A stretch of DNA of 64,000 nt from a virus. Position numbers and translations under genes: made by a program. The notes beneath the pieces are model-generated. The model searched no databases. It saw only the letters and a program-made list of their open reading frames with translations, and was not told the origin of the DNA. Shown in pieces: positions 415 through 1,334 of this stretch. The stretch covers positions 1-64,000 of the IMG/VR virus record IMGVR_UViG_3300031566_000001, one strand, 5' to 3'. Position 1 is the first letter of the stretch. Each line of letters starts with the position of its first letter.

Positions 415-443
415 TTGACAAGCTGCTGGCTTTGTTGTATATT
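415..443 (+). promoter_or_regulatory. sigma70-type promoter
   Basis: TTGACA(415-420)-17 nt-TATATT(438-443). Confidence 0.8.
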
Positions 444-448
444 GATAG

Positions 449-614
449 TGCTACTGACAGCCACGGCTTTTTTGATTCAGAATAATAGGGGCCATGCGAG
501 AAGCCGGGCTAGTCAGTAGCAGACGGCAAGGCAAAGCGTGGCCCTTATGATTGGGGGTGCGGGTAGCCCTCCGATGCCGTTGAGTCCTAAGGTCAACTTG
601 GCACCCGCATCCCC
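449..614 (+). ncRNA. structured pseudoknotted leader RNA, copy A
   Basis: Long stem 449-472/498-521; loop 481-497 pairs 16/17 with 536-552; second hairpin 553-564/603-614; homologous copy with compensatory changes at 62317-62413. Confidence 0.7.
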
Positions 615-629
615 ATGAAGGGAGCAACA

Positions 630-1334
630 ATGAATTCACTCTGCGAGTGTGGTTGTGGCGAGCGGGTGAGCAAGCCAGGGAACCGGTTTGTCCTTGGGCA
701 CAACTGGCGTGGAAAGAGTGGCCCTAATACCCCCAACTGGCAGGGCGGCAAAAGGGAACTGGCTTGCCTCTTCTGTGGCGAGACGATTCTTCGGAAGAGG
801 AATCAGGCCGGCAAGTATAGCAAGCACTTCTGCCACATAGTATGCCGTGCCCAGTGGCTATCGGAAAATCGGACTGGCCGCAGCAATCCTGCTTGGACAG
901 GTGGCCCAATCGAAGTGAACTGCGCCGTCTGCGGTGAGACCATCCTCCGGACGAAGTATCAAGCCGACAGGTGTAGCGACCACTTCTGCGATATGGCGTG
1001 CAAAGCCCAGTGGCTATCGGAAAACCTGATTGGCCCCAACACTCCCAACTGGCAGGGCGGCAAGTCTTTTGAGCCGTATGGACTGGGGTTCAATGACGCA
1101 CTGAGATTGGCTGTCCGAGAACGCGATGAGTTCACTTGCCAACTGTGCGCCGTGCGGGAGAATGGCCGGGCGCATGACTGCCACCACGCGGACTATGTGA
1201 AAGTGAACAACGATCCTGAGAATCTTACTACGCTGTGTCAGGACTGTCATCGGAGAACGAACTACAACCGGGCCTTTTGGACGAACCTATTTCAAGCGCA
1301 GGTGAAGTTGAATGAATGGAGCTACCGGACCTGA
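630..1334 (+). CDS. HNH endonuclease with repeated Cys-rich (Zn-finger/NUMOD-like) N-terminal modules
   Basis: RERDEFTCQLC...HDCHH...NNDPENLTTLCQDCH HNH motif; repeated CxxCG...HFC...C.AQWLSEN..G...P.W.GG units; SD GGGAG before ATG 630. Confidence 0.85.
   Translation: MNSLCECGCGERVSKPGNRFVLGHNWRGKSGPNTPNWQGGKRELACLFCGETILRKRNQAGKYSKHFCHIVCRAQWLSENRTGRSNPAWTGGPIEVNCAVCGETILRTKYQADRCSDHFCDMACKAQWLSENLIGPNTPNWQGGKSFEPYGLGFNDALRLAVRERDEFTCQLCAVRENGRAHDCHHADYVKVNNDPENLTTLCQDCHRRTNYNRAFWTNLFQAQVKLNEWSYRT

Follow-up and report, generated by a model that had tools for sequence, protein, structure and literature searches.

A promoter-coupled 5′ leader RNA with a covarying hairpin-type pseudoknot precedes phage tnpB genes and one HNH endonuclease gene

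The window analysed here comprises the first 64 kb (positions 1 to 64,000) of a 143,142-bp IMG/VR virus record (G000). Self-comparison shows that the record holds two collinear phage genomes of 70–90% identity placed head to tail, the second starting at ~77.4 kb. Either the assembly merged two co-occurring strains into a chimera or the tandem is genuine and, because two genomes are joined in the record, its CheckV label of "100% complete" needs caution. Two nuclease genes of the window, one for an HNH endonuclease and one for TnpB, are each preceded by a promoter and a folded leader (copies A and B, respectively). A sequence-only reading of the window had described a near-consensus promoter with a 17-nt spacer followed by a hairpin at 415–552 and again at 62283–62413, and both are present as described. 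The features are as follows.

415..443, + strand: promoter of copy A, −35 box 415–420, 17-nt spacer, −10 box 438–443, 11/12 consensus matches.
450..520, + strand: hairpin S1 of copy A, strands 450–467 and 503–520, 17 bp with two one-base bulges; predicted transcript start at 450.
468..497, + strand: paired and U-rich parts of the copy A loop, with the U-rich part at 468–484 and pseudoknot strand S2a at 485–497.
521..535, + strand: linker L3 of copy A, 15 nt, purine-rich, partly conserved.
536..548, + strand: pseudoknot strand S2b of copy A, pairing with 485–497 over 13 bp, two of them G-U; duplex −22.1 kcal/mol.
547..618, + strand: candidate upstream frame of 23 codons, opening at the pseudoknot end (0–2 nt behind it); putative translation.
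630..1334, + strand: HNH endonuclease gene, start at 630 with a good Shine-Dalgarno sequence at 619–625; alternative start at 615.
62283..62311, + strand: promoter of copy B, −35 box 62283–62288, 17-nt spacer, −10 box 62306–62311.
62318..62381, + strand: hairpin S1 of copy B, strands 62318–62335 and 62365–62381, 17 bp with one bulge; its loop, also on the + strand, has a U-rich part and then S2a at 62350–62361.
62382..62408, + strand: linker L3 (62382–62396) and S2b (62397–62408) of copy B, the latter forming 12 bp with 62350–62361, two of them G-U; −18.6 kcal/mol.
62421..63632, + strand: tnpB, 403 aa, with OrfB_IS605, TNB and HTH domains and an N-terminal domain match from residue 1.
63594..63846, + strand: 3′ guide-RNA region of the tnpB unit, an omega-like scaffold with three repeats and two spacers, lying outside the leader.

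Copies A and B share one layout, namely the promoter, six bases, a five-base stem foot common to both, the long hairpin, a purine-rich linker of ~15 nt and a 3′ strand. The large hairpin loop is U-rich in its 5′ part, and its 3′ part pairs with the strand behind the linker. The earlier reading had put the stem at ~20 bp with an inner sequence that differs and still pairs; the inner pairs are indeed entirely unlike between A and B and yet complementary, in a stem that measures 17–18 bp and carries one or two single-base bulges. The loop pairing it had placed at 13–17 bp is real, at 13 bp in A and 12 bp in B with two G-U pairs each, and so is the C-G to T-A compensatory change reported within it. 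What did not hold was a nine-base linker as a fixed sequence, which differs in a third copy (136108–136209 of the record) and in relatives. Few unpaired positions of the leader are invariant. Only 3–5 nt lie between the loop strand and the 3′ stem strand, and the linker contains no hairpin. Single-sequence folds are more stable than shuffles (z = −4.1 and −3.5 for A and B, respectively), and pseudoknot duplex energies range from −17 to −25 kcal/mol across copies. In copy A, the ATG at 547 takes its first two bases from the end of S2b. No intrinsic terminator was found behind the leader, nor a conserved 3′ end that would define a discrete RNA.

Altogether ~11 distinct leader versions were found, in two subtypes. 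A covariance model trained solely on B and its twin C recovers A at 43.9 bits (E 5e-12) and gives no further hit anywhere in the 143-kb record. Besides A and B, the type I copies are the following.

Record 136108–136209: copy C, the twin of B; its hairpin is that of B, and linker and 3′ strand differ at ten positions with the loop pairing kept.
L130:509–609: copy D, from a pattern scan of metagenome contigs; before an orthologous tnpB in a different upstream neighbourhood, with homology starting at the −35 box.
L137–L140: versions identical to B or one base different, found in DNA around close TnpB orthologues.
L143:1303–1405: copy E, from DNA around close TnpB orthologues; 34.1 bits, TnpB 80% identical.
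L145:560–665: copy F, from the same kind of search; 29.3 bits, TnpB 82% identical.

Copies E and F have rewritten stems and a rewritten variable pseudoknot half, with complementarity retained. The single exact-pattern scan of metagenome contigs gave one true new copy. Three exact type I patterns run against IMG/VR returned chance or coding matches only, or none, and one exact-pattern scan of genome contigs returned chance matches only. Upstream DNA of 80 IMG/VR tnpB loci yielded nothing with models R1 and R2 and one leader with the type II model R3, and the TerL relative L129 lacks the motif. Further homologs, whose absence would have counted against the sequence-only reading, do exist, in the record itself, in metagenome contigs and in IMG/VR.

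The type I alignment comprises seven sequences, in which 97.6% of pair cells are standard as compared with 32–47% when the 3′ partners are slid. Two-sided changes occur at 15 of 31 pairs (11/17 in the hairpin and 4/14 in the pseudoknot). The pseudoknot helix was left out of the model that made the alignment, so its covariation support is not circular: this helix is 96.7% paired, with four pairs changed on both sides and four on one. None of 500 shuffles reached the observed type I values. Many cells of the alignment are G-U, which would be A-C mismatches on the opposite strand, and for this reason the fold is read on the + (sense) strand. The leader is a genuine, strongly covarying hairpin-type (H-type) pseudoknot RNA. 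A candidate third helix between the U-rich part of the loop and the linker was strong in B, but A, C and F did no better than shuffles and it was rejected.

Reading the DNA upstream of more distant TnpB orthologues revealed the same layout in other letters, referred to here as type II.

L146:180–300: copy G, TnpB 61% identical to that of the window.
L147:1080–1200: copy H, TnpB 58% identical to that of the window.
L149:473–600: copy I, near-identical in L150–L153, TnpB 59% identical to that of the window.
L040:1385–1499: copy K, TnpB 40% identical to that of the window.
L155:1501–1623, minus strand: copy J, before the second tnpB paralogue of the complete 100-kb phage that carries K.

A model trained on G, H and I recovered K and J. 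Type II places a C tract in the loop and a G tract in the 3′ strand, swapped relative to type I; behind the tract helix come a 3 × 3 internal loop and then five pairs showing covariation in all sequences. Five different hairpin stem sequences occur. The pseudoknot (11 pairs) is 100% paired with seven two-sided changes, in an alignment that had been fitted to the model. Some 55 conserved bases upstream of the promoter are also common to type II leaders (L146:90–145, L147:990–1045, L149:385–440), so the type II mobile unit reaches further left than that of type I. In the complete phage G002 (IMG/VR 3300033141_004211, 100 kb, terminal repeats; L154, L155), each of the two tnpB paralogues has its own consensus promoter and type II leader.

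At the gathering threshold, Rfam 15 gave no match anywhere in the window. Relaxing the search to E up to 10 for A and B returned only noise (8–17 bits), and the type I and type II relatives had no match in their leaders. The sequence-only reading had not recognised the family, and neither subtype matches Rfam 15.

Sites that resemble a sigma-70 consensus promoter with a 17-nt spacer are rare by chance: four occur in the window against 0.01 expected, and seven in the whole record. Across copies of the leader, both boxes match or nearly match the consensus while the spacers diverge; the −10 box varies among copies, and one variant resembling copy I has a one-base change in the −35 box. The distance from −10 box to stem is 6 nt in A, B, C, D, E, F, H, I, J and K and ~7 nt in G. 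Given this fixed distance, the predicted first transcribed base is the first base of the stem, and the nuclease mRNA would start with a fully paired 5′ end. Promoter scans found no consensus-grade sense-strand promoter inside the leader, the one weak match (9/12) lying at 454–483.

All copies found except A precede tnpB, in a single TnpB lineage whose members span 40% to 100% identity, and we therefore regard the module as the native 5′ leader of that lineage. The earlier claim of a module shared by two unrelated nuclease genes is accurate for HNH and tnpB in this phage; the other versions, about ten, are all before tnpB. TnpB orthologues of 70–81% identity in non-phage or other settings (L141, L142, L144), one of them inside a cellular transporter operon, lack the module. 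That close orthologues elsewhere do without it marks the module as an expression unit added to the nuclease gene and not as part of the guide RNA.

The place of the start codon is tightly kept. In the type I tnpB copies it lies 8–11 nt behind the pseudoknot, with 12 nt counted for the tnpB start of copy B, the pseudoknot strands contain no Shine-Dalgarno sequence, and three of the tnpB copies (D, E and F) have none at all. In type II the start codon is ~20 nt behind the pseudoknot, and between the two sits a U-rich mini-hairpin whose 3′ arm is the Shine-Dalgarno sequence (82.6% paired). Copy A is arranged differently. The HNH Shine-Dalgarno sequence (619–625) is ~70 nt past the pseudoknot and behind a second hairpin of 12 bp (553–614), which is enclosed by the candidate 23-codon frame; the stop of this frame (616–618) overlaps an in-frame ATG (615–617) of the HNH frame.

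The HNH cassette (423–2277) is missing from the second genome of the record, and the upstream flank of copy A is 90% identical to that genome up to position 422, where flank and −35 box join a different leader. The stem of copy A is like that of E, its pseudoknot is like that of B, and its first seven bases past the fold are the same as at the tnpB start of B. In view of these likenesses, the simplest reading is that a TnpB-type promoter-leader recombined ahead of the HNH gene; copy A would then be a TnpB leader captured once by a homing-type HNH cassette, with the direction of capture being what the likenesses suggest. The HNH protein itself gives a weak HNH match (20.4 bits against a cut-off of 21.4), has no RuvC or PLMP parts, and its relatives carry NUMOD3 and HNH as in homing endonucleases. 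The gene also harbours an internal duplication (772–889 and 928–1045, 76% identical) that provides two copies of a cysteine-rich module. A score for homology between 540–700 (the second hairpin and HNH start) and the tnpB 3′ scaffold was reached by 44 of 300 shuffles, and this candidate was rejected.

Between the two genomes of the record the tnpB unit keeps 94% identity and its flanks only ~72%, which suggests that recombination at promoter-like sequences inserted or exchanged the unit. A 26-nt direct repeat with a −10-like box (62243–62268 and 63845–63870, 81% identical) brackets the entire unit, from the promoter through leader and tnpB to the array. A mobile promoter-RNA cassette, one of four hypotheses raised earlier, would fit the breakpoints, which are in or adjoining promoters.

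At the 3′ side of tnpB, a weak Transposase-2 match (RF03015) is seen at 63594–63660 with 21.5 bits, under its own threshold, and repeats occupy 63693–63846. The mini-array has three repeats and two spacers in the first genome and five repeats with four different spacers in the second (G000 136217–137770); relatives have 1, 2, 3 or 5 CRISPR-like repeats (L145, L143, L141 and L137). A search for protospacers of both arrays in the record and the fetched loci returned self matches only. Inside tnpB, a promoter-like site on the minus strand (62662–62635, 11/12 consensus) is directed back at the leader and start codon. An antisense RNA could arise from it; the site also lies in a conserved coding motif and so may be there by chance.

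None of the four hypotheses put forward in the sequence-only reading (a translational control or antitoxin RNA, a put-like antiterminator, a scaffold RNA for the nucleases and the mobile cassette) is proven, and cis control of expression fits the anatomy best. We tentatively propose, with slightly less than even confidence, that the module would act in cis as a promoter-coupled 5′ leader RNA on the nuclease mRNA, shielding its 5′ end and limiting or gating 30S loading. Host RNA polymerase would start at the first base of the 17–18 bp hairpin, leaving the 5′ end base-paired; the 3′ part of the loop would then pair with the segment past the ~15-nt linker to form an H-type pseudoknot of 10–13 bp, directly behind which comes the start region of the downstream frame, where the ribosome must land. 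Such a compact fold would shield the 5′ end from 5′-end-dependent decay and at the same time restrict or gate 30S loading, so that, in spite of a strong promoter, a potentially harmful nuclease would be made in small quantity or conditionally. The mechanism would not be that of a classic sequestering hairpin in type I, as the pseudoknot strands there are free of Shine-Dalgarno sequences. In copy A, with the HNH ribosome site ~70 nt further on and behind a hairpin, direct occlusion is excluded unless the short frame couples the two. Pseudoknot, linker motif and U-rich loop part also exceed what an end-protecting hairpin needs, so that a specific partner might bind there.

Control of selfish nuclease genes by structured 5′ leaders is known as a kind of element. 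In phages, homing endonuclease genes are commonly kept in check by RNA structures in their leaders, and in the T4 family (I-TevI, I-TevII, I-TevIII, segB and mobE) a stable RNA near the initiation region of a selfish phage nuclease gene likewise keeps expression low or timed (PMC2988022). The stop/start overlap of copy A is of the sort discussed there for translational coupling (PMC2988022). Those leaders are, however, simple hairpins that contain the Shine-Dalgarno sequence and are bypassed by an internal late promoter (PMC2988022), whereas here a pseudoknot extends from the transcript's predicted first base, the sole promoter is upstream and the type I paired strands are free of Shine-Dalgarno sequences. 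A further parallel is timP, a type I toxin gene in which a leader pseudoknot governs translation of the toxic protein, again on the mRNA of a harmful product and deciding translation start (PMC11228461). Its sequence and architecture are unrelated, the timP pseudoknot forming between two stem-loops, and it is controlled by an antisense small RNA (PMC11228461), of which nothing is evident here apart from the promoter-like site at 62662–62635 on the opposite strand.

Among the other explanations, the one that survives best would have a protein bind the pseudoknot: TnpB, HNH or a phage protein could auto-repress or license synthesis in this way, making the leader an operator or a second RNA partner of the nuclease, or the leader could be cut off to serve in trans as a small RNA or decoy. 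The conservation of pseudoknot, linker motif and U-rich loop part beyond the needs of end protection speaks for it, and a consensus promoter with a paired 5′ end would favour an abundant, stable RNA. Leader pseudoknots act as operators in T4 gene 32 and for ribosomal protein S15, and the present leader resembles these and timP in having an H-type pseudoknot in the 5′ leader by the initiation region, copy A adjoining the short frame and not the HNH start. We nevertheless consider this explanation unlikely, because no terminator or conserved 3′ end defines a discrete RNA, the leader has no significant complementarity to the 3′ scaffold/repeat region and no room for a guide, and HNH and TnpB are unrelated, which makes a shared operator improbable unless a third factor binds.

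Like the leader, the TnpB omega RNA (reRNA) is a structured RNA of the same mobile unit with a pseudoknot from hairpin loop to 3′ strand. Unlike it, the omega RNA overlaps the tnpB 3′ end and terminates in a guide, and it is present here separately (63594–63846); the leader is 5′ of tnpB, lacks a guide and is neither significantly similar nor complementary to the omega region. With the predicted start at the stem foot and a start codon just behind the fold, the leader has no room for a guide. Pairing between leader and 3′ scaffold or repeats was no better than for shuffled leaders in six loci and was rejected, as was a tracrRNA-like anti-repeat, for which no contiguous complementarity to the repeat was seen by eye and there is no guide space. 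The HEARO/IscB omega RNA is also a structured RNA upstream of an HNH-domain gene, but Rfam does not match the leader, the HNH protein has neither RuvC nor PLMP parts and falls among NUMOD3-HNH homing enzymes, and a 5′ guide is absent, as the transcript would start at the stem.

A bolder version, which we hold to be rather unlikely, would make the leader a second RNA element of the TnpB/mini-CRISPR system. It might be an operator by which the RNA-guided nuclease, or some factor of the phage, senses and sets its own level, or an antiterminator that needs no factor and allows gene, scaffold and array to be served from one promoter, and it would be portable enough for capture by a homing endonuclease.

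Antitermination can also be considered by itself, in the manner of the HK022 put RNAs: the nascent leader would bind its own RNA polymerase, without a protein factor, and make it read processively through downstream hairpins or terminator-like sites. Its targets would be the omega scaffold and repeat array past tnpB and, past HNH, the hairpin 1488–1518 before the terminase genes. The leader is strictly promoter-proximal in every copy, terminator-like hairpins occur downstream of both cassettes (1488–1518 and the repeat 63822–63839), and the stems keep their structure with their primary sequence little constrained. The put RNAs are likewise cis-acting, promoter-proximal folded RNAs found at more than one promoter of the phage. 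They consist of two stem-loops and no pseudoknot, however, as opposed to one hairpin plus pseudoknot here; no strong terminators lie downstream, the sites named being weak and no commoner than in shuffled sequence, the tight and conserved start-codon spacing would be needless for such a role, and most cassettes look like single-gene units. These points leave antitermination quite improbable.

We are similarly doubtful of a pure 5′-end stabiliser, whose paired terminus would only prolong mRNA life with no role in translation. 5′-terminal hairpins do protect bacterial mRNAs, as in the ompA and ermC leaders, and in every copy the base predicted to be transcribed first is also the first of the stem. 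Yet a plain hairpin would suffice for this, and the covarying pseudoknot and its fixed place by the start codons would be left unexplained.

Two further explanations appear very improbable. A DNA-level element, in which TnpA would recognise the hairpin, as single-stranded DNA, at the left end of an IS200/IS605-type transposon, agrees with the leader's place at the left edge of the unit that is conserved between genomes above its flanks, and with its different sites in related phages, but no Y1 transposase (Y1_Tnp) is found in the 143-kb record, where positive controls worked, unit homology begins at the promoter and not at the hairpin foot, the right end showed no hairpin to match, the module is missing from close tnpB orthologues elsewhere, and both the loop-to-3′ pseudoknot with its two-sided changes and the constant spacing between promoter and stem are features of RNA. 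A small self-cleaving ribozyme or dedicated RNase processing site defining the mRNA end would recall pistol and HDV-like ribozymes in its hairpin-loop to 3′-strand topology, and the stacked helices would approach RNase III substrate length, but none of the Rfam ribozyme models gave a match, even with E allowed up to 10, the extra helices of pistol and HDV-like folds are absent and few unpaired positions are invariant.

The cis-acting leader remains our preferred reading, at the tentative strength given above. TnpB nucleases are the ancestors of Cas12 and the subject of intensive study, which has so far focused on the 3′ guide RNA. The element described here is a 5′-terminal hairpin-type pseudoknot fused to a consensus promoter, in two G/C-swapped subtypes, on a TnpB lineage; the family is uncatalogued, a conserved 5′ TnpB leader with its own promoter being absent from Rfam and no description of one having been found in the literature searched. 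The phage units that bear the leader have CRISPR-like mini-arrays as well. If the leader throttles or licenses nuclease synthesis, this would explain how phages tolerate constitutively promoted nucleases and would make it a compact, portable part for expression control. Its single transfer to an HNH homing gene, as we read it, shows that promoter plus leader can be exchanged among selfish nuclease cassettes.

Other regulatory-looking sequences were noticed in the record. A consensus promoter followed by a leader with a 13-bp terminator-like hairpin heads the terminase genes and is kept in both genomes (1448–1518 and G000 77842–77920); in the first genome, an ORF of 160 aa without Pfam match (1509–1991) is inserted behind this hairpin leader. 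Near the right end of the window, short iteron-like repeats with a spacing of 10 and 15 nt (63881–63950) lie just upstream of a gene annotated as DnaB-type helicase in relatives, and may be a replication origin.
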